64,000 bases of DNA from a virus (IMGVR_UViG_2896028454_000001:3450-67449), one strand, 5' to 3'; counted from the first letter of the stretch, positions 1,297 through 62,380 are shown. The notes: generated by a model from the sequence alone, not told the origin. A program made the numbers and translations.

Positions 1297-3009
1297 ATGA
1301 CGCGCACCAACCCCCGCGACAACGACGACAACGAGCCCGTCAACTTCGAAGACGTCCAGATCGGCGACACCCTGACCTTCTGCAACCGCGACAACGGCTT
1401 CGGGGGCAGTGGTAACCGCATCAACCGCACCGGTGTCGTCACCGGCAAAACCGAAAAGACCGTCACCGTCAAGGTCACCGGCCATAACCCGCTCGCCGTG
1501 GGCGTGTTCACCCTCAACAGCCGGGGCCACGGCAAGGAGGTCACCTACGGCGCCACCGCCCGCCTGCGCGCCTCCACCTGGAACGACCGGCAGGTCCGCC
1601 GGGTCGAGGCCGAGCAGCCCGCCGACGAGCCGACCGCCGAGAGCTACGACGGCGAGTGGGGCGTCTTCAACGACGAGGGATGCACCTTCGTGGGCTCCCG
1701 CGCCGAGGCGGAGGCCCAGGCCGCCAAGGACCGCGCCGCAGATGACGGCCACTGGGCTGAGCTGATCAGCGTTCACCGGATCTGCCCCGACCACGAGGAG
1801 CAGCCCAAGGACGCGTGCGAGGAGTGCTTGACCTACGCCCAGGACGACGGAGCCGAGGAGGAGCCGGTGCACATGCGTGAGGGCAGCGGAACCCTGTGTG
1901 GCGAAACCGGCCCGGACACGGCAGGGACCGGTCACGTGAACTGCGAGGGGTGCCTGGACAAGCTCGCCGACGAGGCGGACCGTATCGCGCAGGGCATCAC
2001 CCTGTGCCCGGTGTACGACGTGCCGGACAGCGAGTGCGGGTGCTCCCTCCACGAGGACGCCGAGGAGTCCCCGGCGGAGGGCCGCGTCATCGCCCACCAG
2101 GGCACCGGTCGCGGCGTCGCCCCCGAGCACTCCGACAACCCCGCCGCCCGCGCCGCCATCGCTGTCCTGGCCGCCGCCGGGCTTTCCCTCGCCGATCTGC
2201 CCGAGACCTACGACCCTGACACCAGCACCGCGAACGGGTTCATGGTCGAGCCGCGCGACGGTGCCGAGGGTCCTGCGGGGGAGATGGTCTACGTCTACTA
2301 CCTGAACAACGGGCAGACCACCGACCCGTCTGGGGAGTTCCCCCGCGACGAGCTGCGCAACGCCCAGCGGGCACTTCGCGACGCCGGGTGGGGTGTGGAG
2401 CCGCGTATCTCCCGGTGCGTGCGGGCCTGCCAGGTTCACGAGGACCCGGCGCCGCAGCACGACCACAGCGTGGCGGAGGGAATCGTCCGCGCCGTTGAGC
2501 AGCGCAACGCCCCGGCGCCGCTGCCGAAGCGCACCCCTGGCGCCACCCGCATCCAAGACGCGGCCGACCGCCACCACGGAGTGGACCCCGACCGCGCCCG
2601 CAAGATCGCCGCCACGCTCGGCACCGCCGGATTCAACGCCCTCCAGTCCGCCGACGAGGACGGATACCTCACCGCCGGACACCCCGCGTCCCTGAAGGCG
2701 CTGGCCCGTGACGAACTGGTGGTGCAGGCCGAGCACCCGGCGGCCGGTGGTGGCCCACGCACGTACCGGATTACGGAACTGGGCCGTGTCGTGGCCCGCA
2801 TGAAGTCCGCCGCGCTGGCCGACCCCACCCCGGAGCCGAAGAAGCCCCGGGCGCACCGCATCCCCGTCAAGCACGCGGACACCCCGACCGGCCGCACCTA
2901 CACGGCCGCTTGCCGCGACTGCGACCACACCGTGGGCCCCTACGACATCCGCGCGATCGCGGAGGAGCGGGCCGCGTCGCACCGGTCCGCGACCGCACGC
3001 ACGACCTGA
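1297..3009 (+). CDS. Large hypothetical protein (570 aa) with several Cys clusters
   Basis: Long ORF with coding-like composition. CxxC-type clusters (CEECL, CEGCL, ECGC). No family recognised. Confidence 0.55.
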   Translation: MTRTNPRDNDDNEPVNFEDVQIGDTLTFCNRDNGFGGSGNRINRTGVVTGKTEKTVTVKVTGHNPLAVGVFTLNSRGHGKEVTYGATARLRASTWNDRQVRRVEAEQPADEPTAESYDGEWGVFNDEGCTFVGSRAEAEAQAAKDRAADDGHWAELISVHRICPDHEEQPKDACEECLTYAQDDGAEEEPVHMREGSGTLCGETGPDTAGTGHVNCEGCLDKLADEADRIAQGITLCPVYDVPDSECGCSLHEDAEESPAEGRVIAHQGTGRGVAPEHSDNPAARAAIAVLAAAGLSLADLPETYDPDTSTANGFMVEPRDGAEGPAGEMVYVYYLNNGQTTDPSGEFPRDELRNAQRALRDAGWGVEPRISRCVRACQVHEDPAPQHDHSVAEGIVRAVEQRNAPAPLPKRTPGATRIQDAADRHHGVDPDRARKIAATLGTAGFNALQSADEDGYLTAGHPASLKALARDELVVQAEHPAAGGGPRTYRITELGRVVARMKSAALADPTPEPKKPRAHRIPVKHADTPTGRTYTAACRDCDHTVGPYDIRAIAEERAASHRSATARTT

Positions 3010-3027
3010 CCCCCGCACACGACGGTA

Positions 3028-3058
3028 GGGCCGGTCTCAGGCGTAGAGAGACCGGCCC
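3028..3058 (+). terminator. Terminator-like hairpin GGGCCGGTCTC-N9-GAGACCGGCCC
   Basis: Perfect 11-bp inverted repeat immediately after the stop of 1297..3009. No U-tract, which is typical of high-GC terminators. Confidence 0.35.
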
Positions 3059-3094
3059 CACCACCCCCAACCTACCGAACTGAGAGGCCCCACC

Positions 3095-3697
3095 GTGTTC
3101 CGCACCTACAACCGACGCCCCGAAACCGTCGAGGGCATCAGCATCACCAACGACAACCTCACCCAGGCCGCCCAGTTCCTCACCGAACTCGGCTACGACG
3201 CCGCCCTGACCGAACCAAACAGCTACTTCAAGAAGCGGCACATCGTGGCGACCCTGCCCCGGAAGGGCGGCGGCCATAACACCCTCTACCTGTACAGCGG
3301 CCGGGTCCTCCTCCAGGACAGCGACAACACGTTCACGATCGCGAGCCAGGACGAGCACGACCACGAATACGCCCTGGCTGACCCCACCCCTGGGGCGAAC
3401 CCCGGGTTCGAGCACCTGCCCAAGGTCGCCGCCGCAGTCAAGATCCTCGCTGACGCCGGACACCAACCCGCACTCCTCGTGAGCCGGTACGGGGCGAACG
3501 ACCCGGCGCACAGCGTGACCCGGGGCGGGTTCCTGGTGCTGAGCTTCGCGCGCAAGCTCCTGATCCGCGCGGAGCAGGTGGACGACCCGGCCGCCCTGGT
3601 GGACGCCTACACGGCGGCGCTGGAGGCCGAGGGGTACACGGTCAAGCTCATCGACCGGTACCGGGTGCCGTACCTCGCGGTCACACCTCCCGAGTAA
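3095..3697 (+). CDS. Hypothetical protein (200 aa)
   Basis: ORF with balanced composition. GTG start after the terminator hairpin. Confidence 0.5.
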   Translation: MFRTYNRRPETVEGISITNDNLTQAAQFLTELGYDAALTEPNSYFKKRHIVATLPRKGGGHNTLYLYSGRVLLQDSDNTFTIASQDEHDHEYALADPTPGANPGFEHLPKVAAAVKILADAGHQPALLVSRYGANDPAHSVTRGGFLVLSFARKLLIRAEQVDDPAALVDAYTAALEAEGYTVKLIDRYRVPYLAVTPPE

Positions 3698-3822
3698 CCC
3701 CCGGGCCCCGGGGCGGAACCCACCCGCCCCGGGGCCACCCCACCACCCGCCCCAACTGCTGGGGTGCAACACCCCACCCCAGTTCACCGCGCACCCGCGC
3801 ACCCGCAGAAAGAAGTACCCCC

Positions 3823-4689
3823 ATGACCGACGCCCCGCTCGGAAAGAGCCGGAGCACCGAAACGAAGTACGCCCGTATCCCGCTGTGGCTCTTCGAGACT
3901 GGTGTGTCCCTCCAGGCCCTTGCCACCTACGCCTGGTTGCACGGCAAGTACGGGCACTTTGACCTGGTCATCCCCTCCTACAGGACACTCGCGAAGCAGC
4001 TCAAAGTCTCTCGCAGTTCGGTCATCGCCTACGTCAACGAGTTGCGCAATGTCGGCGCGATCGTCGCGATCGAGCGGTACAGCAACGGTGAGCGCACCAC
4101 GAACGAGTACGTCATCGCGTTCAACGAGCCGTTCACGGTGGTCAGCATTCCGACCACCTCTGACCAGGGTGGACCTGACGAAGGTGGTCAGGATATTGAT
4201 CAGGGGGGTCAGCCCGCTGACCCGGGTGGTCAGAATGCTGACCCGGGGTGGTCAGCCGGTTGTACTGCGGAAGAAGACGTAGTTGAAGAAGACGTAGTTA
4301 AGAAGACACCCAACAACCCGGCGTTGCCGGGTATGCCCCCCGACCCCGTCGAGCCTCCGAAGCCCGGCAGCGACGACGACCCCCAATGGGTGAAGTTCTG
4401 GGCCGCCTACCCCAACAAGGTCTCCAAGAAGCGAGCCCGCGCCTCGTTCGCCCAAGCGCTGAAGAAGGTCACCTTCGATGACCTCATGGTCGGCCTCCAC
4501 CGATACCTCACCGAGGACTACCGCCCTCTAGGCGGCTACGTGAAAGATCCTGCGGCGTGGCTGAACGGCGAGTGCTGGGCGGATGAGCCCCAACCTCCTC
4601 GCGGCGCCCCAAAGGCCGCTGGCGGCCCCTCCGCGGCTGTCCCCACTCACGACGACTGGAACACCGGAAAGGCCCAGGTCCAACTCTGA
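3823..4689 (+). CDS. Replication initiator-like protein with N-terminal winged-HTH; contains internal iterons
   Basis: N-terminal wHTH-like region (LAKQLKVSRSSVIAYVNELRNVGAIVAIER). Low-complexity linker encoded by the repeat DNA. Position directly upstream of the loader and helicase genes. Confidence 0.55.
   Translation: MTDAPLGKSRSTETKYARIPLWLFETGVSLQALATYAWLHGKYGHFDLVIPSYRTLAKQLKVSRSSVIAYVNELRNVGAIVAIERYSNGERTTNEYVIAFNEPFTVVSIPTTSDQGGPDEGGQDIDQGGQPADPGGQNADPGWSAGCTAEEDVVEEDVVKKTPNNPALPGMPPDPVEPPKPGSDDDPQWVKFWAAYPNKVSKKRARASFAQALKKVTFDDLMVGLHRYLTEDYRPLGGYVKDPAAWLNGECWADEPQPPRGAPKAAGGPSAAVPTHDDWNTGKAQVQL
4160..4256. repeat. Iteron cluster. At least 7 copies of GGTCAG/CTGACC (mostly as GGTGGTCAG) in about 100 bp inside the initiator gene
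   Basis: Read directly: GGTGGTCAG at about 4183, 4225, 4247; GGGGGTCAG at 4204; CTGACC at 4160, 4217, 4238. Confidence 0.5.
4273..4308. repeat. AT-richer tandem direct repeat GAAGAAGACGTAGTT x2 plus a partial copy (candidate DNA-unwinding element)
   Basis: Exact 15-bp tandem duplicate followed by AAGAAGAC, immediately 3' of the iterons. This is the lowest-GC stretch in the gene. Confidence 0.4.
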
Positions 4690-5276
4690 TGCACGACTAC
4701 GAACACGACCGCCGCGCCAAGCTCGCGGACTGGGAGAACACCAAGGCTGCAAACCGGCTCGCCCTCTGGGAGAACACCAAACAGCCCAAGGCGTTCGCCA
4801 AACCCGGCACCCTGCACCCCGACATCGCCGCCTGGTGCGACCGCTTCGCCGCAGGAGAGACCGGCAACCTCATCATCGCCGGGGGCATCGGTGTCGGGAA
4901 GACCTGGAACCTGTGGGCCATCGGCCGGTACCTGATCACCCGCCACCACTGGTTCGGCCGCATGGAAGTCGCGACCGCCTACGACTTCCACGTAGCCACC
5001 GAGGGGTTTAAAGCAGACCGAGACCAGCTCAACGTGTGGTCGTCCGCTCACCTGCTCGGCCTGGACGACGTCGGCGCCCAGACCGTGAACGAGCGGACAA
5101 AGGAGCACTACGCCGGGGTCATCAACACCCTGTCCGAGGACGAGCGACCGATCATCGCCACCACCAACGAGGAGAAGTTGGCCCCGTTCGTCGGCGACCG
5201 TGCCGCGTCCCGGCTCCGTGAAAACGCCACCTTCGTCACCATCACCGGATACGACCGCAGGAAGGCCCGCCAGTGA
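4689..5276 (+). CDS. DnaC/IstB-like AAA+ helicase loader
   Basis: Walker A GGIGVGKT and Walker B LLGLDDVG. Sits between the initiator and the DnaB-like helicase. Confidence 0.75.
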   Translation: MHDYEHDRRAKLADWENTKAANRLALWENTKQPKAFAKPGTLHPDIAAWCDRFAAGETGNLIIAGGIGVGKTWNLWAIGRYLITRHHWFGRMEVATAYDFHVATEGFKADRDQLNVWSSAHLLGLDDVGAQTVNERTKEHYAGVINTLSEDERPIIATTNEEKLAPFVGDRAASRLRENATFVTITGYDRRKARQ

Positions 5277-6607
5277 ACACCCCCACCGAGTTCCCGCACG
5301 ACATCCCCTCGGAGAAGGTCGTGCTGGGCCTGTGCCTGATCTCTAAACGCGCCCTGGAGGACGTGGCTGCCCACGGCCTGCTCCCGGAGGACTTCTACCG
5401 ACCTGCCCACCAGGCCATCTATGAGGCGGCCCGCCACCTGGTGGACATGGGCAAGCCGGTATCGGCGGAGTCGGTGAACGCCGAGCTGGCGCGCCGGGGC
5501 GAGTCGGTGGCGACCGGCGGCATCCTCACCCTGATCGAGTTGACAGAGAACACCCTGTCCCCGGCGACGGCCGTCTACTACGCCAACCTGGTCATCAACC
5601 AGGCCCGGCTACGGCGAGCCCTCCAAGGGGCCATCCGCGCCGCCCAGATCGCATCTGAGGGCCGCGGGGACGTCGATGAGCTGATCGGGATGATCGCCGC
5701 CGAGATGGAAGCGGCGACCGCCCCACGGGCCACCAACGACGACGAGTTCATGGCCCTCGGCGACATCATCCCCAACGTCGTGGACCTGCTGGAGAAACCC
5801 GACGAGGCCACCAACGCCGTCCCCCTGCCCTACGGAGACCTCGACGCCCTCACCGCAGGTCTCGAACCCGGGGAGGTCATGGTGGTGGCTGGCCGCCCCG
5901 GCACGGGTAAGACCACGTTCGCTCAGGACGCTGTCCGCCACGCCGCGATCCGCCACAACATCCCCTCCGTGTTCTTCAGCTTGGAGATGTCCAAGGAGGA
6001 GCTGACGCTGCGGGTCCTATGCGCCGAGTCGCGTGTGCCACTGCACACGATGAAGTCGCGCCTGCTGGACGAACCCGACTGGGAGCGCATCCGCGACGCC
6101 CGCAAACGCATCGCGGACGCCCCGCTGATGATCGACGCGAACCCGTACACCACCACCGCGCATATCCGCGCCCGCCTGCGTGGCATGGCCCGGCCCGCCC
6201 CCGGCAAGCCCGGCCCGGCCCGCCTCGTGGTCGTGGACTACCTCCAGCTGATGAAGCACCCCGGCCGGCCCGAAAACCGGCAGCAGGAAGTCTCCGACAT
6301 CTCGCGCGAGCTGAAGCTGATCGCGAAGGAGTTCGGGGTGGGCATCATCCTCCTGGCTCAGCTCAACCGCGGCCCCGAGCAGCGGCAGGACAAACGGCCG
6401 ATGGTGTCGGACCTGCGTGAGTCCGGCAGTGTGGAGCAGGACAGCGACATGGTCGTCCTGCTGTTCCGGGAGGACGTGTACGACAAGGAGTCGCCCCGGG
6501 CGGGGGAGCAGGACATCATCGTGGGCAAGCATCGGGGCGGCCCCACCGCTGAGGTGACCGTGGCGTTCCAGGGCCACTACTGCTGCGCTGTCGGGTTCGG
6601 TGACTGA
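5273..6607 (+). CDS. dnaB: DnaB-like replicative helicase
   Basis: N-terminal DnaB-type domain, Walker A GRPGTGKTTFAQD, VVVDYLQLM motif, RecA-like C-terminal domain (444 aa). Confidence 0.85.
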   Translation: MNTPTEFPHDIPSEKVVLGLCLISKRALEDVAAHGLLPEDFYRPAHQAIYEAARHLVDMGKPVSAESVNAELARRGESVATGGILTLIELTENTLSPATAVYYANLVINQARLRRALQGAIRAAQIASEGRGDVDELIGMIAAEMEAATAPRATNDDEFMALGDIIPNVVDLLEKPDEATNAVPLPYGDLDALTAGLEPGEVMVVAGRPGTGKTTFAQDAVRHAAIRHNIPSVFFSLEMSKEELTLRVLCAESRVPLHTMKSRLLDEPDWERIRDARKRIADAPLMIDANPYTTTAHIRARLRGMARPAPGKPGPARLVVVDYLQLMKHPGRPENRQQEVSDISRELKLIAKEFGVGIILLAQLNRGPEQRQDKRPMVSDLRESGSVEQDSDMVVLLFREDVYDKESPRAGEQDIIVGKHRGGPTAEVTVAFQGHYCCAVGFGD

Positions 6608-7416
6608 TGGCCGACCAGATCCCGCACGGCACCCCGTCCGGGTACTCGTACCACGGCTGCCGGTGCCGACCGTGCACAGACGCCCAGCTCAGGTACTGGA
6701 ACCGGCGTGAGTACATGATCCTCACCGGGCGGTGGAATCCGCACATCGCCACCGAGAAGGTGCGCGCCCACATCCTCACCCTGCGCGCCAAGGGCATCCC
6801 TGACCGGCGCATCGCAGAACTCGCCGATGTCGGGGCCACGTCGATCTACTACATCCTGCACCGCAACGGCGAGAAGACGTCCCGCCGGGTGGGTGAGGCG
6901 ATCCTGTCGGTCACCCACGACCCGGACCCGCCGCCGGAGAAGAAGGTTCCGGCGTGGGGCACCATCCGTCGCGCTCGGGCGCTCGCCGCGCTCGGGTGGT
7001 CCTCGGGTGAGATCGCTGAAGCCGCCGGGCTCACCCGGTCTGTGGTCCGCCACATCCTGCGTGGCCGCCCCCGGATGGTGCTGGCGGAAACGGCGACGGG
7101 CCTGGTCCGCGCGTACCGGAAGCTGGGCGGGGGCTTCGCCCCGGAGTCCCGAACCGCGAACCAGGTCCGAGATGAGGCGCGTGTGAAGGGGTGGCCGGCC
7201 CCGGCCGGGTGGGATGACCACTGGTTGGACCTGACCGAGGACGAGTTGGAGGCCGAGTTGGGGCGGGAGGTGGCGCGGATGGACATGGCGGAGCTGTCCC
7301 GGTGTTACAAGGCGTGGCGGGTGCGGGGGGAGTTGTCGCCGCTGGTGGTGGCCGCAGCGGCGGAGTACAACCGGCGTCGGGCGGATCAGGTACGGGCGCA
7401 GAGGGAGGCGGCGTGA
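6607..7416 (+). CDS. DNA-binding protein with an N-terminal Cys/His motif (GYSYHGCRCRPC) and HTH
   Basis: Motif GTPSGYSYHGCRCRPCTDAQLRYWNRREY. HTH-like IAELADVGATSIYYIL and IAEAAGLTRSVVRHIL. Confidence 0.5.
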   Translation: MADQIPHGTPSGYSYHGCRCRPCTDAQLRYWNRREYMILTGRWNPHIATEKVRAHILTLRAKGIPDRRIAELADVGATSIYYILHRNGEKTSRRVGEAILSVTHDPDPPPEKKVPAWGTIRRARALAALGWSSGEIAEAAGLTRSVVRHILRGRPRMVLAETATGLVRAYRKLGGGFAPESRTANQVRDEARVKGWPAPAGWDDHWLDLTEDELEAELGREVARMDMAELSRCYKAWRVRGELSPLVVAAAAEYNRRRADQVRAQREAA

Positions 7417-7793
7417 TGGCGCGGAGGGTGACAGGGCCGACGAAGGCCGTCCGGAACATGGTGTGGGAGCGGGACCGCGGGGCGTGCGCCTGGTGCGGCG
7501 GCCCGGTGGTGGAGGGGGACCACAGTCTCCAGCACCGGCGGGCGCGGGGGATGGGCGGCACCCGGAGGGCGGACGCGAACTCCCCGGCGAACCTGGTGTT
7601 GGTGCACGGGTCCGCGACGACGGGGTGTCATGGGCATATCGAAGCCCACCCGGGGGAGGCGGCTCGGCGGGGGTTTCGGCTCGGTCAGCTCGCGGACCCG
7701 GCGGACGTGCCGGTGTTGTACGCGGGGCGGGTGTGGGTCCGGTTGGATCATGCGGGGGGTTGGGTGGCTCAGAGTGGCGTACTGCCTGGGTAG
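7416..7793 (+). CDS. HNH endonuclease
   Basis: CAWCG...HSLQHRRARGMGG...NLVLVHG..CHGHIE matches the HNH core. Confidence 0.7.
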   Translation: MARRVTGPTKAVRNMVWERDRGACAWCGGPVVEGDHSLQHRRARGMGGTRRADANSPANLVLVHGSATTGCHGHIEAHPGEAARRGFRLGQLADPADVPVLYAGRVWVRLDHAGGWVAQSGVLPG

Positions 7794-7845
7794 ACAGGGG
7801 GGTACGTGAGAATCTGGCTGTGGTTTTCTATGTCCCAGTGCTGTA

Positions 7846-7869
7846 AATTCGTGTAAATTTACACGAATT
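7846..7869. promoter_or_regulatory. 24-bp perfect palindrome AATTCGTGTAAATTTACACGAATT (copy 1) upstream of ssb
   Basis: Read directly. A near-identical copy lies at about 21560. Followed by a conserved CTGATAGAGTGGGGGTACCCC segment and a GGAAGGGGAAACCTTCC hairpin. Confidence 0.5.
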
Positions 7870-7977
7870 CTGATAGAGTGGGGGTACCCCAACGGGAAGG
7901 GGAAACCTTCCCGGGGGACAGGGGGTGACCTGCGCAAACGGCGAATCAGGCACCCACGAGATAGAGAGGTTCCCCCT

Positions 7978-10744: not shown

Positions 10745-11262
10745 TGCCCGTGGACACCGCCGCTGAGGCCCGCATGGTGGTCGCCGGGCGGGTCGCGGAC
10801 CCCACCACCCAGGAGGTCACCCCCGCAGAGCTGGAAGCCCTCCGCCCCCTCCTTGACGCCCTGGATCTGCTCCCCCGCCCCGAGACCCCGGACGAAGCCG
10901 AAGCCGAATCCGGGCCCGACACCACTAACCCGGTCAAGGAACCGATCGCCAACCCGGCCAAGGAACCGGCCGCCGTCCGGGACGAGTGCGGAACCCGCAA
11001 CGGCTACCAGCAGCATGTCCAGCTCGGCGAAGAAGCGTGTGAGGACTGCAAGGCAGCCAACCGGATCTACGCCTACGCCTGGTACCAGCGCAACAGGGCC
11101 AACCGCCGGGAGTTGGCCCCGTGCGGGACCGAAGCCGCGTACCAGCGGCACCGGCGGCGACGCGAGGAATGCCGGGAGTGCAAGGACGCGAACGCCCGGG
11201 CGGGCAGGGAGAAGCGGGCACGGCAGAGTGCCCGCCGAGCGCGCGACCGCGCCACCGCATGA
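10744..11262 (+). CDS. Protein with two copies of the G.GY..H...C..C..A..Y motif
   Basis: CGTRNGYQQHVQLGEEACEDCKAANRIYAYAWYQRNRANRR and CGTEAAYQRHRRRREECRECKDANARAGREKRARQ. Confidence 0.5.
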   Translation: MPVDTAAEARMVVAGRVADPTTQEVTPAELEALRPLLDALDLLPRPETPDEAEAESGPDTTNPVKEPIANPAKEPAAVRDECGTRNGYQQHVQLGEEACEDCKAANRIYAYAWYQRNRANRRELAPCGTEAAYQRHRRRREECRECKDANARAGREKRARQSARRARDRATA

Positions 11263-11312
11263 ACCCAGACCGCCCCACCCGAACCCACCCGCCTTTTGGA
11301 GAGGAGGCCCCC

Positions 11313-12107
11313 GTGCGCTTCTACCTCGGAACCCACCAACCCGACTGGCTTCACCACCTCAACCACCGGTGGTTCGAAGCCGACCAGGTCCCCCTGTTCG
11401 TGTCCCACCGCCGCCTCGCCGACCGCCGCACCCTGTTCCCCGCGAACGTCCCGTGGGCCCTCGACAGCGGCGGGTTCACCGAGCTGTCCATGTACGGCCG
11501 GTGGGTAACCACCCCCACGGACTACGCCCACCACGTCCGCCGGTACATGGACGAGATCGGCCGACTGGAGTGGGCCGCCCCGCAGGACTGGATGTGCGAG
11601 CCGGTGATGCTCGCCAAGACCGGCCTCACGGTCGCCCACCACCAGGCGCGCACCCTCGACAACCTGTTGGAGCTGCGCCACCTCGCCCCCGACCTGCCGT
11701 GGGTGCCCGTCCTCCAGGGGTGGGAGCCGGACGACTACCGGCGCCACGCCGACGCCTACCAGTCCGCTGGTGTCGACCTCACCACGGAACCCGTCGTCGG
11801 GTTGGGGTCGGTGTGCCGCCGCCAGTCCACCACCGCCGTGCACAGCCTGGTCGCTGAGCTGGCCGCTGCTGGGCTCCGGTTGCACGGGTTCGGGTTCAAA
11901 ACCCTTGGCCTCCGCAAGGTCGGGCATCTGCTCGCGTCCGCTGACAGCCTCGCTTGGTCGTTGAACGCCCGCCGTCGCCCCGCCATGGCCGAGTGCTTCG
12001 ACGCTCACGAGCACTGCGGGAACTGCCCCCGGTTCGCCACCCGGTGGCGCCGCCAGCTTCTCGACTCCCTCACCCCGCCCCCGGCCCCCTCCGCTTACGC
12101 GGCCTGA
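11313..12107 (+). CDS. tRNA-guanine transglycosylase superfamily protein, DpdA-like
   Basis: DSGGF catalytic-Asp motif (as in the TGT DSGGFQ). VPVLQGW, GLGSVCRR. C-terminal C-x5-H-x-HC-x2-C zinc-site-like motif (CFDAHEHCGNCP). Confidence 0.6.
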   Translation: MRFYLGTHQPDWLHHLNHRWFEADQVPLFVSHRRLADRRTLFPANVPWALDSGGFTELSMYGRWVTTPTDYAHHVRRYMDEIGRLEWAAPQDWMCEPVMLAKTGLTVAHHQARTLDNLLELRHLAPDLPWVPVLQGWEPDDYRRHADAYQSAGVDLTTEPVVGLGSVCRRQSTTAVHSLVAELAAAGLRLHGFGFKTLGLRKVGHLLASADSLAWSLNARRRPAMAECFDAHEHCGNCPRFATRWRRQLLDSLTPPPAPSAYAA

Positions 12108-12123
12108 CCCGAACAGGACCCCC

Positions 12124-12903
12124 ATGGACTCCCTCAGCCTCGCTGACCGCATGAAGACCTACGAGGCCGCCACCCGCCATATCCTCCCCGCCCAGACGTA
12201 CACCGTCGTCCGCGTTGACGGGCGGGCGTTCCACACGTTCCTCCGCCACGCTGACCGGCCGTTCGACGACGCGGTCATGGCCGCCATGGACGCCACCGCC
12301 GTCGCCCTCTGCAAGGACATCAGCGGGGCCCGGTTCGCCTACACCCAGTCGGACGAGGTCAGCGTCATCATGACCGACTTCGGGAACGCTGGCACACAGC
12401 CGTGGTTCGGCGGGGTCGTCCAGAAGATCGCGTCGGTTGCCTCCTCGGTGGCCACCGTGGCGTTCAACGCCGAGTACGGGCACCACTACGACGACGCGAC
12501 CGCCACGTTCGACGCGCGCGTGTTCACGCTCCCCACCGCGGCGGAGGTCGTGAACTACTTCGTGTGGCGGCAGCGCGACGCGGTCCGCAACGCCGTGTCC
12601 ATGGCTGCCCAGGCCGAGTTCTCCCACCGGCAACTCCACGGGGTGAACACCGCCCAGGCCCGCGAACTCCTCCGATCGCGCGGCATCGACTTCGACGCCT
12701 ACCCGGCCGGGGCCCGGTACGGCCGGTTGTGTGCTCGCGCCACCAGCGAACGCACCGTCACCTACACGGACAAGCGCGGGGTTGAGCACACCACCCGGGC
12801 CGTCCGCTCCCACTGGGAGACCATGCCCGCCCCGTCCTTCACCGCCGACCCGGGCGGGGATCTGGCCTCGTCCATCCCCGAGCCCGGCGACCACACCTCC
12901 TGA
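12124..12903 (+). CDS. Thg1-like protein (tRNA-His guanylyltransferase-like 3'-5' nucleotidyltransferase family)
   Basis: VVRVDGRAFH vs Thg1 VVRLDGRNFH. AYTQSDEVSVIM vs AYGQSDEYSFVF. DARVFTLPT...YFVWRQ vs DGRVVVYPS...YLSWRQ. Motifs are collinear with eukaryotic Thg1. Confidence 0.75.
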   Translation: MDSLSLADRMKTYEAATRHILPAQTYTVVRVDGRAFHTFLRHADRPFDDAVMAAMDATAVALCKDISGARFAYTQSDEVSVIMTDFGNAGTQPWFGGVVQKIASVASSVATVAFNAEYGHHYDDATATFDARVFTLPTAAEVVNYFVWRQRDAVRNAVSMAAQAEFSHRQLHGVNTAQARELLRSRGIDFDAYPAGARYGRLCARATSERTVTYTDKRGVEHTTRAVRSHWETMPAPSFTADPGGDLASSIPEPGDHTS

Positions 12904-20487: not shown

Positions 20488-20739
20488 GTGAACCTCGCTG
20501 GCCGTACCCGCGCTGACATCGACGCGCTCCTCACCGAACGAGACACCGACATCGCCACCCTCACCCAAGCCGCCGACATCGCCGACACCCGCCGCCTGTT
20601 CGACCTCGCCGACCACTGCCGAAAGTGGGCAGCGAACCCACCCAACCCCGCCGGGGGCACCCCGATCGGGTACCTCCTCGCCCTCACCTACGCGGACCTT
20701 CTCGTCCACGGCCACACCCCCCAGGAGCACACCCCATGA
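20488..20739 (+). CDS. Hypothetical protein (83 aa)
   Basis: GTG start inside track ORF 20431..20739. Confidence 0.4.
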   Translation: MNLAGRTRADIDALLTERDTDIATLTQAADIADTRRLFDLADHCRKWAANPPNPAGGTPIGYLLALTYADLLVHGHTPQEHTP

Positions 20740-21515
20740 CCCTGATGACCGGGTTCGACCTGGAAACCACCGGGAAGGACCCCGAAACCGCGCGCATCGT
20801 CGAGTACGGGTTCGCGCACGTCGGCGGCGGCCAACCTTCCGAGTTCGTGGAGGAACGTGTCAACCCGGGGGTTCCGATCCCAGCCGAGGCCGCCCAGGTC
20901 CACGGCATCACCGACGAGATGGTGGCCGCCGCCATGTCGGCCGAGGCCGCGGTGACCCGCATTGTGCGGACCATCGCTGGGGTGCTCGCTGAGGGCCGGT
21001 TGCTGGTCGGCCACAACATCGTGTACGACCTGACCGTGTTGGACCGGGAGTGCCGCCGCCACCTCGGGGAGGGGTTGGAGTCCCTGTTGGGGGTGCCGGT
21101 CCGCCCGGTGGTGGACACGTTGGTGTTGTCCAAGCACCTGGACCCGTACCGCAAGAGGGTGTCGGACAAGCAGGGTGCTCACCAGTTGCGTACCTGTGTG
21201 GAGAAGATGGTGACCCCCCGGTGGCCGTCTGTGGTGTGGGACGAGGGGGAGGCGCACGGGGCCCTGTACGACTGTCGCATGGCGTTGTATGTGGCCGCGG
21301 CCGTGTTGGCTCTCCCGAAGCTGTCCAACCTGGGCCTGGGGGAGTTGCACGATGCCCAGGTGGGGTGGAAGGCCGCTCAAGCCGCCGGGTTCCAGACCTA
21401 CCTTCGCAACCCGGCGAAAGCGGGGGACAGCTACGACCCGGGCGCGGTAGTGGACGGCAGGTGGCCGGTTGTTCCGGCTGAGCCCCGGCAGGAGGCGTTG
21501 TTGGGGAGGGGGTGA
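20736..21515 (+). CDS. DnaQ-like 3'-5' exonuclease (DEDDh)
   Basis: Exo I FDLETTG. Exo II LVGHNIVYDL. Exo III HGALYD. Confidence 0.75.
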   Translation: MTLMTGFDLETTGKDPETARIVEYGFAHVGGGQPSEFVEERVNPGVPIPAEAAQVHGITDEMVAAAMSAEAAVTRIVRTIAGVLAEGRLLVGHNIVYDLTVLDRECRRHLGEGLESLLGVPVRPVVDTLVLSKHLDPYRKRVSDKQGAHQLRTCVEKMVTPRWPSVVWDEGEAHGALYDCRMALYVAAAVLALPKLSNLGLGELHDAQVGWKAAQAAGFQTYLRNPAKAGDSYDPGAVVDGRWPVVPAEPRQEALLGRG

Positions 21516-43198: not shown

Positions 43199-44401
43199 AT
43201 GACCCTCACCCACGAAGACGCCCGTCTCCTCACCGGCCTCGAAGTCGCCACCACCCGCGCCACCCTCACCAACGCGCTCACCACCGTGGCCGTCGCCATC
43301 CACACCCGCCCCGCCGTCCCCATCCTCGCCGGGGTCCACCTGACCGGCGACGCGGACGGCACCCTCACCCTGACCGGGTTCGACTACGACACCGCCGTCA
43401 CCGTCACCCTCCCCGGCGTGGCCACCAACCCCGGCCGGGTTGTCCTCTCCCACGCAGAGCTGGCCGGGCTGCTCGCCGCGACCGCGAAGGGCACACCCGC
43501 GAAGAAGGCCGGGGCCGCGCCCGTGGTCTTGGCCCAGAACGGCAACAAGCCGACCTTGACCGTGGACGGGTACACCCTGCCGGTCGCGGACTACCCCGTG
43601 GACGAGTACCCGACCCTGCCCACGGCGCCCGCGCCCACGCTCACCGTCGACGCGGCCACGTTCGCGGCGGAGGTGGCCCGTGTGGTGCCCGCCGCCGGAG
43701 GGGCCGACGACATCCCCCAGTTGGTGAACGTCCAGTTGGAGACGTACACCAGGGGCGCCTTGTGCCTTACCGCCACCGACCGGTACCGGATCGCTCAGGC
43801 CACCATCCCGGGCACCCGCGCCCCCCGCGCCCCCCGCGCCGACCTCGGCCAGGTCGTGCGCGTCAACGCCGCACTGGTCGGCAAGGTCACCAAGCACCTG
43901 AAGGGGGACACCGTCACCGTTGGGGTGCACGGGGACATGGTCATGCTGGCCAGCGGGCCCGTCACGGTGGTCACCCGCACCAGCGAGGATGAGTTCCCGG
44001 CCGTGGAGAAAGCCATCCCCACCACCATCCCCATGTCGGTGACCGTGGATCACAAGGCGGTGGCCGCCGCGATCACCAAGGCGGGCAACATCCTGGCGGC
44101 GAAGGGTGAACGGGGCCTGTCGGTGGGTATCACCGTCAACCCGGGGTCGGTGGCGGTCGCTCCGGACCTGCCCGGTGTCCTCGCCCCGCAGATCACCGCT
44201 GACACGTCCGATGCGGACGGTGAGGTGTCCGTCTACTTCAACCCGAAGTTCCTCGCGGCGGCGGTGGGAGCGTTCAAGAGTGAGGACACGGTGACGTTCC
44301 ACCTGGACACGCCGACCCGCCCGGTCGTGGTGACCGGCGGTGGGCACACCGTCAAGTCCGCGCCCTACCGCCACCTGGTGCAGCCGATCAGGGTCCACTA
44401 G
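43199..44401 (+). CDS. DNA polymerase III beta sliding clamp-like protein
   Basis: N-terminus LTNALTTVAVAIHTRPAVPILAGVHLTGDADGTLTLTGFDYDTAV matches the DnaN N-terminal domain. 400 aa, consistent with three clamp domains. Confidence 0.7.
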   Translation: MTLTHEDARLLTGLEVATTRATLTNALTTVAVAIHTRPAVPILAGVHLTGDADGTLTLTGFDYDTAVTVTLPGVATNPGRVVLSHAELAGLLAATAKGTPAKKAGAAPVVLAQNGNKPTLTVDGYTLPVADYPVDEYPTLPTAPAPTLTVDAATFAAEVARVVPAAGGADDIPQLVNVQLETYTRGALCLTATDRYRIAQATIPGTRAPRAPRADLGQVVRVNAALVGKVTKHLKGDTVTVGVHGDMVMLASGPVTVVTRTSEDEFPAVEKAIPTTIPMSVTVDHKAVAAAITKAGNILAAKGERGLSVGITVNPGSVAVAPDLPGVLAPQITADTSDADGEVSVYFNPKFLAAAVGAFKSEDTVTFHLDTPTRPVVVTGGGHTVKSAPYRHLVQPIRVH

Positions 44402-48930: not shown

Positions 48931-49021
48931 GGGAGTGCGCCGGAGATGGAGCGCCGGAGCTGGCTGTAACCCAGTGACCCCTTTCGCGGGTTAGGAGGTT
49001 CGAGTCCTCCCACTCCCACCA
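48931..49021 (+). tRNA. tRNA-Tyr (anticodon GTA), class II with long variable arm, encoded CCA
   Basis: Hand-folded. Acceptor GGGAGTG/CACTCCC. D-arm CCGG/CCGG with GG. Anticodon stem GCTGG/CCAGT. Loop CT-GTA-AC. T-arm GGAGG-TTCGAGT-CCTCC. About 91 nt. Coordinates +/- 1. Confidence 0.6.
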
Positions 49022-49042
49022 CCCCGCCCACACGCGGGGCCT

Positions 49043-49118
49043 ATGCGGGTAGCTCAACTGGTAGAGCAGCCGCCTCCAAAGCGGCCGGTTGCGGGTTCGA
49101 ACCCTGCCCCGTATGCCA
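49043..49118 (+). tRNA. tRNA-Trp (anticodon CCA), encoded CCA
   Basis: Hand-folded. Acceptor ATGCGGG/CCCGTAT (one G-U pair). D-arm GCTC-AACTGGTA-GAGC. Anticodon stem GCCGC/GCGGC. Loop CT-CCA-AA. T-arm GCGGG-TTCGAAC-CCTGC. 76 nt. Confidence 0.75.
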
Positions 49119-56735: not shown

Positions 56736-57227
56736 GTGGGCAAGCGAGGCCCCCGCGAGAAACCCACCTCCCTCAAGCTCCTCGACGGCACCCGCCGCGA
56801 CCGGATCAACACCGACGAACCCCTCCCCGGGCAGGGCACCATCGCCCCGCCCGGGTGGCTGGTCGCTCTCCACAACCAGGCCGACCCCGCGTCCCCCTAC
56901 GAAACCGCCCTGGACGTGTGGAATCGGCTCGCCCCCGACCTCGAAGCGAAGATGGTCCTCACCCCATGGGATGTCGACACGTTCGCGGTGTGGTGCGACG
57001 CCGTTGTCCGCCACCGCGAAGCCGTTGACGAGATCACCCAGTACGGGGTCATGGTCGTCGGCCAGAAGGGCGAGCGGGTCAAAAACCCGGCCGTCCAGAT
57101 CGCCCGCGACTACGCGGAGACGATGACCCGCATCGGTGCCCGCTTCGGCCTCACCCCCTCGGACCGTGCCGGTCTGAAGATCGACCGGGAGGAGGTCAGG
57201 GGTGGAGCCGAACGATTCCTCTCCTGA
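56736..57227 (+). CDS. Terminase small subunit (P27-family-like)
   Basis: KGERVKNPAVQIARDYAETMTRIGARFGLTPSDRAGL is typical of the P27 small terminase family. Immediately upstream of the large terminase, with overlap. Confidence 0.7.
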   Translation: MGKRGPREKPTSLKLLDGTRRDRINTDEPLPGQGTIAPPGWLVALHNQADPASPYETALDVWNRLAPDLEAKMVLTPWDVDTFAVWCDAVVRHREAVDEITQYGVMVVGQKGERVKNPAVQIARDYAETMTRIGARFGLTPSDRAGLKIDREEVRGGAERFLS

Positions 57228-58914
57228 CCTGCCCGCGTGCTCCTGGACCCATGACGGCCTGACCTGCCCCGAGCAGGGCAACCACTTCTGTACCCCGCGC
57301 GCGAACCACGCCCAGGGGTTCATCGAAGAGGTCCTGGTGCACACCAAGGGCACCTACGCGCGCAAGCCGTTCATCCTCACCGACTGGCAGCGCGACGACA
57401 TCGTCCGGCCCTTGTTCGGGCAGGTTCGCTGGTCCGACGAGTACCAGGACTACGTCCGCCAGTACTCCACGGCGTGGATCGAACTGGCCCGCAAGAACGG
57501 CAAGTCCGAGATCCAGGCCGCGATCATGCTGTACCTGCTCGTGGCGGACGGTGAGGAAGAAGCCGAACTGTACGGGTGCGCCCGCGACCGCGACCAAGCC
57601 AGCCTGGTGTTCAACGTCGCCAAGCGCATGGTGCAGCTCTCACCGGTGCTGTCGCGCCGGTTGCAGGTCAAGGACGCCAACAAGCGCATCGTGGACCCGA
57701 AAACCGCGTCGTTCTACCAGGTGATCGCCGCCGACGCGGCCGGAGCCCTGGGCTACAACCCGCACGGGGTTGCGGCCGACGAGATCCTGGCGTGGCGCAA
57801 GCGGGACCTGTGGGACGCCATGGAGACCGGTATGGGTTCGGGGGCCCGCCGACAGCCGTTGATGATCGCGGCGACCACCGCAGGCAACGACCCGACCAGC
57901 TTCGCGGCGAACATGCACAACGAGATGCAGCGCATCTTCGACATGCCGGACCGGTCGGCGCACACGTTCGTGTACCTGCGCAACACCCCGGAGGACGCGG
58001 ACCCGTGGGATGAGGCGACGTGGAAGATCGCGAACCCCGCCCTGGGGGACTTCCTGTCGATCGAGAAGTTCCGGCAGGCCGCATCGGACGCACGGAACGC
58101 CCCGGAGAAGGAGAACGCGTTCCGCCAGTTCCGTCTCAACCAGTGGGTGCGCCAGTCCACCCGGTGGATGCCCATGCACCTGTACGGGGAGAATCCCGGC
58201 GAGGTGTGGTCCCACCCGGACCAGGCGCGCGAGGAGCTGGCGGGCCGGGAAGCCTACGGCGGCCTCGACCTGTCCGCGAAGTTCGACCTGACCGCGTGGT
58301 GTGTGCTCCTTCCCCCGGAGGAGAAGGGCGGCCCGGTCGATGTGCTGTGGCGGTTCTGGTTGCCCGAGGACGCCTTGCCGAAGCTCGACGAGGAGAACGA
58401 CGGCGCGTTCACCCGGTGGGCTGAACAGGGCTGGTTGACCATCACCGAAGGCAACATCATTGACTACGACCGGGTGTACGAGGACATCGGCGAGGACGGC
58501 GAACACTTCGCGTTCCGTGCCGCGCACGCCGATGAGTGGTCGATGTGGCCGGTCATCAACAAGGTCGCGGACCTTACCGGCCTGGACCCGGAAGAGGGCG
58601 AGATCGTCGCGTACAAGAACACCTACGACCGGATGACGCCGGGGTTGAACGAGGTCATGGCGTTGGTGAAGACCCGCCGGTTCGCGCACCACGGCAACCC
58701 GGTCGCGTCGTTCTGCTTCGACAGTGTCGAGGTGCGGCGCGCCCCGTACAACCCGGACCTGATCCGCCCGGACAAACCGGAGCGGGACAAGTCCGGGAAG
58801 CGCATCGACGGTGTTCCGGTGGCGGCGATGGCCGCGAACGCGATGGTCCTCAACGCCGACACCGGCGAGGGTTACCGGTCCGCTTACGAAGACCGCGGCC
58901 TCACCGTCGCCTAA
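57202..58914 (+). CDS. Terminase large subunit
   Basis: 570 aa. ATPase region then nuclease region with conserved acidic residues. Standard position before portal. Confidence 0.9.
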   Translation: MEPNDSSPDLPACSWTHDGLTCPEQGNHFCTPRANHAQGFIEEVLVHTKGTYARKPFILTDWQRDDIVRPLFGQVRWSDEYQDYVRQYSTAWIELARKNGKSEIQAAIMLYLLVADGEEEAELYGCARDRDQASLVFNVAKRMVQLSPVLSRRLQVKDANKRIVDPKTASFYQVIAADAAGALGYNPHGVAADEILAWRKRDLWDAMETGMGSGARRQPLMIAATTAGNDPTSFAANMHNEMQRIFDMPDRSAHTFVYLRNTPEDADPWDEATWKIANPALGDFLSIEKFRQAASDARNAPEKENAFRQFRLNQWVRQSTRWMPMHLYGENPGEVWSHPDQAREELAGREAYGGLDLSAKFDLTAWCVLLPPEEKGGPVDVLWRFWLPEDALPKLDEENDGAFTRWAEQGWLTITEGNIIDYDRVYEDIGEDGEHFAFRAAHADEWSMWPVINKVADLTGLDPEEGEIVAYKNTYDRMTPGLNEVMALVKTRRFAHHGNPVASFCFDSVEVRRAPYNPDLIRPDKPERDKSGKRIDGVPVAAMAANAMVLNADTGEGYRSAYEDRGLTVA

Positions 58915-60232: not shown

Positions 60233-60386
60233 GGGATTCCGCGGGGTCCTCTACCGCAAGGCCGGTGGCCTCGTGGAACTCCGCAACGCCGAACGCCTCG
60301 AACCCGGCCTGCCACCGGCCCAGTGTGACGGGGCGGTCGTCCTCGAACGGTCCCAGATCCTGTTCTGGCAGGTGGTGCCGTCGTGA
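60171..60386 (+). CDS. Small hypothetical protein upstream of portal (TTG start)
   Basis: AGAAGGGGGG RBS 8 nt upstream of the TTG. ATGA overlap with portal. Confidence 0.35.
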   Translation: MFAWLRLLLRREVVVNLHDGTGFRGVLYRKAGGLVELRNAERLEPGLPPAQCDGAVVLERSQILFWQVVPS

Positions 60387-62380
60387 GCATCATCGTGTCC
60401 GGCGGGAAACTCGAACAGGTCCGCGACCACGGCGGGTACACGCTCCCGGCCGCGATCCAGCTCGGCAACACCTGGGTGGAGTACGGGCAGATCTTCGACG
60501 CCCAACCGCAGGTGCAGACCGTGGTGTCGTTCCTGGCGCGCAACATCGCCTCGTTGACGTTGCACGCCTACGAACGCCGGTCCGACACCGACCGGGCCCG
60601 GCTCACTGACCACCCGCTCCCGAAGGTGCTCCGCAACCCGCTCCCCGGGCGGAAGCTCACCAGGTACCAGCTGTTCTACCGGATCGTCGCTGACCGGGCC
60701 ATCTACGACGACGCGTTCGTGGTCAAGCTCCGCGACGGCAACGGGAAGGTCATCGGCCTGCTGCCGGTACCCCGCCCGTGGGTGACCCCCGACAAGGGGA
60801 CGTGGATCGAACCCGCCGAGTACGTGGTGGCCGGGACCGTGCGTGTCCCGGCTGAGGACATGATCCACCTGCACGGGTACGCCGTCGACTCGCTGTGGCA
60901 CGGCACGTCCCCGATGGGGGCGCTCAGGAACATCCTCCTGGAGGAGTACGAGGCGAACCGGCACCGCCAGCAGATGTGGCGGAACGGGGCCCGCACCTCC
61001 GGGTTCATCCAGCGCCCGCAGATGAAGGGCAAGGACTGGTCGGAGGAGGCCCGCACACGGTTCCAACGCGAGTTCCGTGACCTGTACACCGGGGAAGGCG
61101 CAGACGCCGGAGGGGTGCCGGTCCTGGAAGACGGGATGACCTACGTCCCGGCCGGGCTCGACCCGCGGGCAGCCCAGTACATCGAGGCGCGCAAGCTCAC
61201 CCGCGAAGAGGTCGCCGCCGCTTACCACATCCCGCCCCCGTTGGTGGGCATCCTCGACCACGCCACGTTCTCCAACATCCGTGAGCAGCACAAACAGCTG
61301 TACCAGGACACGTTGGGCCCGTGGCTGGTCGACATCGACGAGGCGTTGGAGATCCAGCTCGTCCCCGAACTCGCGGACCCCGACCTGGTGTACCTGGAGT
61401 TCGACATCCGGTCGAAGCTGAACGGTGCGTTCGAGGAACGGGCCGCCGCCGCATCGTCGGCTGTGGGTGCCCCGTGGATGACCGTGAACGAACAGCGGGC
61501 GTTGGACAACCTGCCCGCCATCCCCGGCGGGGACGAACTGATCACCCCGCTCAACGTGACCAAGGGCGGGCAAGCGTCCCCCCGCGACTCGGCGCCGGAC
61601 CCAGCGGACACCGCGAAGACGACCAACCCGCCCCGGGTGAAGGCCCGCACCGTCCACCTGAAGATGGCCCCGCCCGAACACGCGGTGAACCAGGCGGAGA
61701 AGGAGCTGGCCCGGTTCTTCGACCGGCAGGCCCGCTCCCTCAGTTCCCTGCTCGGCGCTGCGAAGGCCCGCGGGCACCTGACCAAGGAGTCCGCGGCCTC
61801 GGTGAACTGGGACCGGTGGGAGGGCGAACTGGCCCTGGTCCTGACCCAGGTCAACCTGGCCACCGCCGCGCAGGCCGCTCGCGCCGCGTTGGAGGAGATG
61901 GGTGCCGACCCGGCCGACTACGACCCGGAGGCCACCGCGTTGTGGCTGATGGACAACGCGGCTGCGCAGGCACAGGCGACCACGGACACCTCCCGTATCC
62001 AGGTCGAGGAGGCGTTGGACGCGGAGGACCCGGCGGAGGCGTTGAAGGCCCTGTTTGCGGCGTGGGGGACGTCCCGTGCCGCTGAGTTGGCGCACCGCCA
62101 CACCCAGCACATCACCGGCTATACGTCGGTGAAGGAAGCCCGCAAGGTGTTCGGGTCCTCAGCGCGGAAGACGTGGCGGACCACGTCCCGCAACCCCCGG
62201 TCTTCGCACGTGCGGATGAACGGGCAGACCGTGCCGATCGACAGCAAGTTCTCTAACGGCGGCCGGTGGCCCGGCGACAGCCTGTTGTCCGCCCGTGAGG
62301 CCGCGAAGTGCAAGTGCATGTTGTCGATCACCGGCATCCCCGAAACCGACGATCCCGGCACCGTGCCGGACGAGGAGTAA
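60383..62380 (+). CDS. Portal protein
   Basis: 665 aa. Position after terminase. Conserved central portal region and acidic C-terminus. Confidence 0.85.
   Translation: MSIIVSGGKLEQVRDHGGYTLPAAIQLGNTWVEYGQIFDAQPQVQTVVSFLARNIASLTLHAYERRSDTDRARLTDHPLPKVLRNPLPGRKLTRYQLFYRIVADRAIYDDAFVVKLRDGNGKVIGLLPVPRPWVTPDKGTWIEPAEYVVAGTVRVPAEDMIHLHGYAVDSLWHGTSPMGALRNILLEEYEANRHRQQMWRNGARTSGFIQRPQMKGKDWSEEARTRFQREFRDLYTGEGADAGGVPVLEDGMTYVPAGLDPRAAQYIEARKLTREEVAAAYHIPPPLVGILDHATFSNIREQHKQLYQDTLGPWLVDIDEALEIQLVPELADPDLVYLEFDIRSKLNGAFEERAAAASSAVGAPWMTVNEQRALDNLPAIPGGDELITPLNVTKGGQASPRDSAPDPADTAKTTNPPRVKARTVHLKMAPPEHAVNQAEKELARFFDRQARSLSSLLGAAKARGHLTKESAASVNWDRWEGELALVLTQVNLATAAQAARAALEEMGADPADYDPEATALWLMDNAAAQAQATTDTSRIQVEEALDAEDPAEALKALFAAWGTSRAAELAHRHTQHITGYTSVKEARKVFGSSARKTWRTTSRNPRSSHVRMNGQTVPIDSKFSNGGRWPGDSLLSAREAAKCKCMLSITGIPETDDPGTVPDEE

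Follow-up and report, generated by a model that had tools for sequence, protein, structure and literature searches.

A probable lambda-type replication origin of palindromic iterons inside the initiator gene of a Nocardiopsis phage or prophage

This analysis concerns a stretch of viral DNA of 64,000 nucleotides (IMGVR_UViG_2896028454_000001:3450-67449), called the window throughout, and in particular the replication initiator gene that it carries on the + strand at 3823..4689 (288 aa; open reading frame and translation, phrog_270). The middle of this gene contains five palindromic iterons followed by an AT-richer 15-nt tandem repeat, and comparison with related genes indicates that selection is acting on the DNA of these repeats rather than on the peptide that they encode. 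Since the repeats are conserved as DNA and not as protein, they are very probably the replication origin of the phage, and we would put at about three in four the probability that 4137-4307 is an origin of the lambda type, residing inside the gene of its own initiator. The principle as such is textbook knowledge, and the evidence from across the family is unusually clean.

Iterons and an AT-richer tandem repeat in the initiator gene

The original prediction, which was made from the sequence of the window alone, had placed at 4160-4308 a cluster of at least seven GGTCAG/CTGACC hexamers in both orientations within about 100 bp. Counting exact copies, we find eight in 116 bp (4140-4255), namely GGTCAG on the + strand at 4140, 4186, 4207, 4228 and 4250, and on the - strand (as CTGACC) at 4160, 4217 and 4238. 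The whole 64 kb holds 75 of them on both strands, 0.12 are expected per 116 bp at the background rate, and the Poisson probability of finding eight or more is approximately 1e-12, or approximately 6e-10 when corrected for all windows. While seven of the eight hexamers fall into the predicted span, the cluster already starts at 4137, such that its first site (4137-4155) lies upstream of the predicted start. Likewise, the two orientations are present, but not as loose hexamers, since each unit is itself a palindrome: the hexamers make up five 16-bp palindromes of the form GGTCAG-N4-CTGACC, mostly with GGT in front. GGTGGTCAG is found exactly at 4137, 4183, 4225 and 4247 and GGGGGTCAG at 4204, giving start-to-start spacings of 46, 21, 21 and 22 nt, and Tandem Repeats Finder reports a 21-nt period repeated 3.4 times at 4183-4255.

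The five sites are not equally perfect. Iteron 1 (4137..4155; preceded by GGT, spacer CATT, right arm CcGACC) has one mismatch in its right arm and is read as V-V-S-I-P-T, and it is followed by an orphan half-site CTGACC (4160..4165, - strand). Iteron 2 (4183..4201; preceded by GGT, spacer GATA, right arm TTGAtC) has two mismatches, whereas iteron 3 (4204..4222; preceded by GGG, spacer CCCG) and iteron 4 (4225..4243; preceded by GGT, spacer AATG) are perfect. Iteron 5 (4247..4265; preceded by GGT, spacer CCGG) has an intact left arm but a variant right arm (tTGtAC), and its hexamer is read in the third frame (W-S-A). No second iteron cluster was found elsewhere in the 64-kb window.

The AT-richer tandem repeat that had been noticed after the iterons is there as well. 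It runs from 4270 to 4307 (+ strand), is purine-rich on the top strand, and consists of GAAGAAGACGTAGTT, exact at 4270-4284 and again at 4285-4299, and of a third core, AAGAAGAC, at 4300-4307 (Tandem Repeats Finder: 15-nt period, 2.6 copies); we propose it as the DNA-unwinding element. Its GC content is 0.45 over 60 nt and 0.40-0.42 over 45 nt, compared to 0.693 for the window as a whole, which places it within the lowest 0.2% of 45-nt segments. The tract that flanks the iterons on one side (4260-4310) thus is AT-rich in relative terms, as a lambda-type origin demands.

Conservation as DNA, not as peptide

A megablast search with 3000-7500 against 50,697 phage records gave no match, and hence there is no annotated close relative that could be used for comparison. 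The comparison set comprises 13 loci of the initiator family plus the divergent locus L018 (eight from exact-protein look-ups, five from a genome scan and one from IMG/VR), with proteins that are 40-79% identical to that of the window; some family proteins have unrelated C-terminal halves. Every locus but L018 carries four to six GGTCAG-N4-CTGACC sites, the first of them just past the AFNEP sequence at the end of the winged-helix domain, and the distal sites are spaced 21-22 nt apart. In a position weight matrix, the arms hardly vary (1.0-2.0 bits per position), in contrast to the N4 spacer. One locus, L013 from Kitasatospora sp. NPDC047058, has only two to three iterons (3303-3360 of that locus), and its frame past the 15-mer region runs into a proline-/serine-rich sequence unlike that of other family members, so that it may be a deleted or frameshifted, decaying copy.

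The offset of iteron 1 (+23 nt after the AFNEP codon) is identical in L014, L015, L017 and L021, and the orphan half-site is conserved in L014, L015 and L020. As a palindrome, iteron 2 is perfect in L014 and L015, which are the closest relatives. The right arm of the last site is CTGTAC in L009, L010, L014, L015 and L023, and TTGTAC in L011, as in the window. In 11 of the 14 family loci, two to three copies of the AAGAAGAC core are present (allowing up to one mismatch), mostly at a distance of 14-15 nt.

In principle, such a pattern could be the by-product of selection on the protein, if an acidic, low-complexity linker of GGQxxD heptads were needed by the initiator, and GGQxxD units are in fact visible in protein alignments down to 40% identity. 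The codons tell otherwise. Across the family loci, GGTCAG is read as G-Q 50 times, as V-S or V-R 11 times and as W-S-A four times, and CTGACC as x-D-[P/Q/H/L/R] 49 times and as L-T eight times; all three hexamer frames are in use within the window gene alone. One DNA hexamer thus yields unrelated peptides in three frames, and the AAGAAGAC core is similarly read as E-E-D or K-K-T, with both frames occurring even within the window gene. Where the linkers do encode Gly-Gln, the rare GGT codon is used in 50/50 pairs (43 GGTCAG, 7 GGTCAA), as compared to 1/11 outside the linkers, and [ATSP]-Asp is written nCT-GAC in 43/50 cases in linkers versus 3/60 outside. What does vary in the codon before the linker Asp is its first base, so that this residue can be A, T or S. 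Rare codons thus remain fixed at synonymous positions, whereas the spacer varies at non-synonymous ones.

The same bias is seen in the overall composition. Family-wide, glycine is encoded by GGT in 91/129 linker codons versus 13/113 winged-helix codons, and the GC content at third codon positions is 0.55 in the linker versus 0.90 in the winged helix. In the window, third-position GC is 0.543 in the linker, 0.31 in the 15-mers and 0.877 in the neighbouring genes, and the GGT share of glycine codons is 7/10 versus 22/155 (Fisher P 2e-4). The prediction had named as a refuting outcome that close relatives keep the linker with different codons; the opposite is seen, with the DNA motif being kept, through invariant rare codons and in several frames. 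The peptide that had been assigned to the repeats, DQGGPDEGGQDIDQGGQPADPGGQNADPGW...EEDVVEEDVV, is indeed found in the translation of the open reading frame 3823-4689, and the repeats encode exactly the segment of the initiator, aa 105-165, that is predicted to be disordered. The equivalent segment of the plasmid pSK41 initiator is dispensable as protein (PMC5703833). Taken together with L018, which swaps the whole peptide yet keeps a phased repeat (see below), selection at the protein level is already largely refuted, and we regard it as extremely improbable. The best explanation for the linker peptide with its GGQxxD heptads and EEDVV units is that of a tolerated disordered segment whose sequence is dictated by the DNA element. 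With its rare codons, three frames and specificity switch, this is a clean example of a protein repeat that is conserved because a DNA element dictates it, and annotators should be cautioned that the low-complexity motif 'GGQxxD' is not a protein feature.

A palindrome in a coding sequence can also act in the transcript. GGUCAG-N4-CUGACC hairpins in the initiator mRNA might slow or attenuate translation or transcription, or might set mRNA stability; each perfect unit is able to form a 6-bp stem with a tetraloop, and the region folds better as a single strand than shuffled controls (-37.5 kcal/mol, z -3.6, DNA parameters). However, the arms are invariant in sequence and never show compensatory changes, and the conserved half-sites as well as the recurring right arm of the last site (CTGTAC/TTGTAC) weaken or break the hairpin. 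Neither the 21-22 nt phasing nor the purine-rich 15-mers have an obvious rationale in RNA, and Rfam gave no match at the repeats (the scan of the window returned only tRNA). A role at the RNA level thus appears very unlikely.

A switch of iterons in one relative

One relative replaces repeat and peptide together at the same position. L018 (a Logan SRR22560176 contig; protein 57% identical) has no GGTCAG at all, but carries at the equivalent place (3268-3385 of that locus) GGGGGTCGGTAnnCCGnACCCC in four copies, spaced 42, 22 and 23 nt, which encode another peptide, GSVGRTP. The 15-mers are retained, with TGAAGAAGACGTATT occurring twice after the switched iterons. In the protein, the start of the recognition helix is changed (S52G, S63G, and S65/S66 to T-T), and these changes are unique to L018 among 40 family members with a readable linker. 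We would read this as a specificity switch, in which repeat and recognition helix appear to have changed together. In L018, the initiator gene is directly followed by that for DnaB, and there is no DnaC-like loader gene.

The initiator and its helicase genes

The description of the gene product as a winged helix-turn-helix initiator is borne out by profile matches. It matches phrog_270 'replication initiation protein' with an E value of 2.9e-31 over aa 12-268, and several 'O-like' PHROGs weakly (E 1e-5 to 4e-4). A Pfam scan (E<=0.01) gave HTH_36 and HTH_11 and nothing else, and thus neither Phage_rep_O, the family of lambda O, nor RepA_N (PF06970); the HTH_36 score, 23.7 bits, is just below the 25-bit cut-off, but HTH_36 is recorded for many homologues and passes the cut-off in L025 (31.7 bits). 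An NCBIfam scan gave no informative match, and a sequence search of the PDB returned nothing at E<=1. The protein is 100% identical to one (P0001) annotated in Nocardiopsis sp. FR26 on a 253-kb contig.

An AlphaFold2 model, built on a 44-sequence alignment, predicts a winged-helix N-terminal domain, a disordered linker and a helical C-terminal domain. The N-terminal domain (aa 12-103; 3856..4131, + strand), which is presumed to bind the iterons, is the best-conserved part of the family and has helices at 12-15, 21-25, 30-43, 53-60 and 64-76 and a beta hairpin at 80-98; its predicted local distance difference test (pLDDT) block means are 64-95, with the minimum at aa 41-50 and near the hairpin turn. 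Foldseek comparison with the PDB gave weak best matches, which are the DnaD N-terminal domain (2v79) and the staphylococcal Rep-DNA complexes 5kbj, 4pql and 4pt7 (E = 0.08-0.16 for the latter three). Between the two folded domains, aa ~105-165 are predicted to be disordered (pLDDT <50). The C-terminal domain (aa 185-250; 4375..4572, + strand), which we presume to recruit the replisome, is formed by helices at 187-247 (pLDDT 80-90) and matches phrog_9327 'primosomal protein' (E 4.9e-15). In tblastn searches, the initiator matches the C-terminal parts of Gordonia, Arthrobacter and Oenococcus phage initiators and of DnaD-like loaders.

Also as predicted, the initiator gene lies directly upstream of DnaC-like and DnaB-like genes. 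The former (4689..5276, + strand) encodes a DnaC/IstB-like AAA+ helicase loader (phrog_50, E 3.9e-19; Pfam Bac_DnaA and IstB_IS21; weak NCBIfam matches to DnaC/DnaI), and the latter (5273..6607, + strand) a replicative helicase of the DnaB family (phrog_19, E 5.9e-98; Pfam DnaB_C, E 1.7e-84, and DnaB, E 5.7e-22). The same two genes stand directly 3' of the initiator gene in L014, L015 and L019.

If the element is an origin, dimers of the N-terminal winged-helix domain would bind the five palindromic iterons, the last four of which lie on one face of the DNA, because they are 21-22 bp, or about two helical turns, apart. The bound iterons would form a nucleoprotein complex similar to that of the O-some model of lambda initiation, and this complex would stress the adjoining AT-richer, purine-skewed 15-nt repeats (4270-4307) such that they melt. 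The C-terminal domain and the DnaC-like loader from the neighbouring gene would then put the phage DnaB helicase on the opened DNA. We infer binding of the iterons by the N-terminal domain, melting at the 15-mers and origin firing at this element from sequence comparison.

The module is preceded by a GC-rich intergenic leader (3698-3822), which contains a perfect 13-nt inverted repeat (3704-3716 / 3724-3736) as well as two copies of CCACCCGCCCC and 2.5 copies of CCGCGCAC. The leader has no T-tail and no sigma-70-like promoter, and a scan of 3500-4800 for sigma-70 promoters and intrinsic terminators found nothing. The leader may act as a terminator of the upstream gene, or as a regulatory site for the replication operon.

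Palindromes outside the family

A first, stricter iteron pattern had 0 matches in IMG/VR. A pattern on DNA only, which asks for two palindromes 3-8 nt apart, was run on IMG/VR and on metagenome contigs. In IMG/VR it found seven stretches that represent three distinct sequences. One of them, L023, is a family member, and L024-L028 form one lineage, in which the L025 initiator is 26% identical to the window protein and matches phrog_270 with an E value of 5.5e-14 in addition to HTH_36. Here, too, the palindromes stand right after the winged-helix domain and are followed by a 15-nt repeat of their own, AGAGGTACTTGAACT, in 2.5 copies. The palindrome-carrying open reading frame of L022 has neither a Pfam nor a PHROG match and was not counted as support.

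The metagenome search returned 24 stretches, among them two (L037/L051) of the L025 lineage and two (L044/L045) of a further lineage, in which the palindromes are followed by GAAGAAGAACAACTT-AAGAAGAACAAC; the L044/L045 reading frame looks like a winged-helix initiator by eye only, and was missed by the family profile. The other matches are unrelated repeats, such as low-GC tandem arrays or ends resembling those of insertion sequences (IS), and hence the palindrome alone is not diagnostic; the idea of using a palindrome pair as a marker of this origin type was dropped. What recurs in several lineages is the combination of a winged-helix initiator, phased palindromes in the linker and a purine-rich 15-nt repeat. 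Long GGTCAG-N4-CTGACC arrays of 6 to >10 units with periods of ~19-23 nt, some in low-GC DNA, are found in the metagenome contigs L035 (1067-1197), L038 (114-234), L032, L041, L046 and L053. None of the reading frames that span these long arrays matched the winged-helix profile of the window family, which was the sole check made.

It is mildly surprising how little the iteron varies among initiators of such divergence. Lambdoid phages diversify their iterons together with the N-terminal domain of O. One may speculate, and we find it doubtful, that GGTCAG-N4-CTGACC with a phased purine-rich 15-mer is an old origin 'code', widespread among high-GC phages, that has stayed the same in initiators with as little as 26% identity and with C-terminal domains unrelated to each other. 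Should this be true, these phages would differ from the lambdoid ones, and there might be an unusually rigid code between recognition helix and DNA, which would put many unrelated prophages into one incompatibility or cross-activation group. Alternatively, the palindrome or the AAGAAGAC 15-mer, which is unchanged even in L018 where the iteron has switched, might be recognised by a conserved host factor or, as single-stranded DNA, in a sequence-specific way. As a corollary of such a code, the conserved 'GGQxxD' protein repeat would be purely an imprint of the DNA element.

Origin or regulatory site

Several observations weigh against an origin at this place. GC skew and cumulative skew over the window show no switch near 4.2 kb, though skew is uninformative here, because all genes are co-oriented. 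The 'AT-rich' tract still has a GC content of 40-45%, and AT-richer places occur five times in the window. The covariation of iteron and recognition helix comes from a single lineage, L018, and 20 of the 24 metagenome matches to the palindrome pattern are unrelated repeat arrays or IS-like ends. Finally, iterons that lie in initiator genes can also act in autoregulation or in the control of copy number, and need not mark the start site. As to host factors, DnaA boxes (TTRTCCACA, up to one mismatch) occur at chance level in the window, with none near the element.

The palindromes might thus be regulatory sites for the initiator or for another phage DNA-binding protein, for example the helix-turn-helix (HTH) protein encoded at 6607-7416, with the true start of replication elsewhere. 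Autorepression, a roadblock in the replication operon, handcuffing or copy control, and the exclusion of related phages are roles that could be envisaged. Conservation at the DNA level proves a DNA function, but not which one, and plasmid as well as lambda iterons are also responsible for phenotypes of control and inhibition (PMC7466680). Furthermore, AT-richer intergenic spots exist, such as that at 7820-7870 with a perfect 24-bp palindrome. What speaks for an origin instead is that the sites are always coupled to the adjoining low-GC 15-nt repeat, and that they always directly follow the winged-helix domain of an initiator, beside helicase or loader genes, which is the origin layout of lambda and pSK41. 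The lack of a second iteron cluster in the 64 kb argues in the same direction. We therefore consider a purely regulatory function unlikely and prefer an origin at 4137-4307.

The 24-bp palindrome just mentioned, AATTCGTGTAAATTTACACGAATT at 7846-7869, lies downstream of the HTH gene (6607-7416), at a spot where the intergenic DNA is among the most AT-rich in the window (45-nt GC 0.33 at ~7824). This region looks like an operator or promoter region, and of the alternative low-stability sites close to the replication module it is the most obvious one.

Comparison with known origins

The origin of lambda consists of iterons together with an AT-rich tract midway along gene O; with additional iterons, O gains residues, and it is possible to disrupt iterons while leaving the protein unaltered (PMC7466680). 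The window element resembles that of lambda and the lambdoid phages in the location of the putative origin in the middle of the initiator gene, in its four to six phased dyad iterons and in the AT-rich tract on one side (PMC7466680). Also as in lambda, it is the iterons that code for the linker, which joins a DNA-binding domain at the N-terminus to a C-terminal domain that would recruit the helicase loader, whose gene is immediately downstream. The likeness to the layout of the lambda O gene, which had been proposed from the start, thus finds support in the sequence comparison. However, the window initiator has no Pfam Phage_rep_O match and only weak O-like PHROG matches, the iteron sequence differs, and the tract is arranged as 15-nt tandem repeats with 40-45% GC, a value that is owed to the high-GC host. 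Furthermore, the element has a DnaB and a DnaC-like loader of its own, rather than a hijacker of the host DnaB of the lambda P type.

A second parallel is with plasmid pSK41, whose Rep protein binds four Rep boxes in the centre of rep via its N-terminal domain, while the central domain encoded by the origin is a dispensable linker and the C-terminal domain is DnaD-like (PMC5703833), the latter being host- or replisome-specific in the pSK41/RepA_N group (PMC5703833). In the plasmid pPR9 hybrid, a phage-derived pfam13730 N-terminal domain works as part of a plasmid initiator (PMC5703833). The window initiator shares with this group the winged-helix N-terminal domain and the central repeats that encode the linker in its own gene, and its N-terminal domain belongs to the same Pfam family as that of pPR9 (pfam13730) (PMC5703833). 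In contrast to pSK41, it lacks a RepA_N match and stems from an Actinomycetota phage or prophage rather than a Firmicutes plasmid; its sites are GC-rich palindromes instead of A+T-rich Rep boxes, and no antisense-RNA control is evident.

The family and the neighbourhood, initiator then helicase loader, are shared with HTH_36/phrog_270 initiators of Arthrobacter and Gordonia phages, which are annotated as 'RepA-like replication initiator' or 'replication initiation protein'. The element thus would work like the origins of lambda and pSK41, yet by sequence it is a member neither of Phage_rep_O nor of RepA_N, but belongs to the HTH_36/phrog_270 initiators. One of these, gene 44 of Arthrobacter phage Bolt007 ('RepA-like replication initiator'; L029), has a tandem repeat of 24 nt x2 in mid-gene, too. 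This repeat (2803-2850 of L029) is accompanied by an inverted pair (2923-2975) with the consensus DnaA box (GTTATCCACAG / CTGTGGAAAT), such that the gene may harbour an internal origin built in another way, with host DnaA taking part. The retrieved region of Bolt007 carries no origin annotation.

A full-text literature search found no description of such an origin or iteron for actinobacterial phages of the HTH_36/phrog_270 family. Wetzel et al. speculated about an origin within repA of some mycobacteriophages, where RepA is a different protein (PMC7157519). The co-occurrence of 'GGTCAG' and 'iteron' in literature on the Streptomyces plasmid pWTY27 turned out to concern merely a PCR primer. 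The element described here hence offers a concrete origin candidate for a large uncharacterised Nocardiopsis phage or prophage, and likewise for an initiator family of Streptomyces, Kitasatospora and other actinobacterial prophages without a mapped origin. The module at 3.7-6.6 kb, which comprises the initiator gene with its putative internal origin, the loader and the helicase, could serve as a self-contained replicon in vectors for high-GC actinomycetes.

Other genes of the window

Nearly all genes of the window are on one strand, and they include a DpdA-like gene, a methyltransferase, a sliding clamp, a large terminase and a portal protein, in addition to two tRNAs. The window thus looks like a large phage or prophage that is carried on a Nocardiopsis contig. 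This agrees with the fact that the origin module lies ~53 kb upstream of the packaging genes for the large terminase (57202-58914) and the portal protein (60383-62380), which argues for a large element. The window also has genes for a protein resembling the exonuclease subunit of DNA polymerase (20625-21515) and for a homologue of the sliding clamp (processivity factor; 43199-44401).

Two tRNA genes are adjacent to each other at 48931-49118. The tRNA-Trp(CCA) was called by both ARAGORN and Rfam, whereas the tRNA-Tyr(GTA) of 91 nt is a call of ARAGORN alone and was unreported by Rfam at the gathering threshold. Also adjacent are the genes for a DpdA-like queuine tRNA-ribosyltransferase (11121-12107; phrog_1279, E 6e-92) and a Thg1-like tRNA-His guanylyltransferase (12124-12903; phrog_4717, E 2e-71), the former of which suggests that the phage makes a 7-deazaguanine modification of its DNA.

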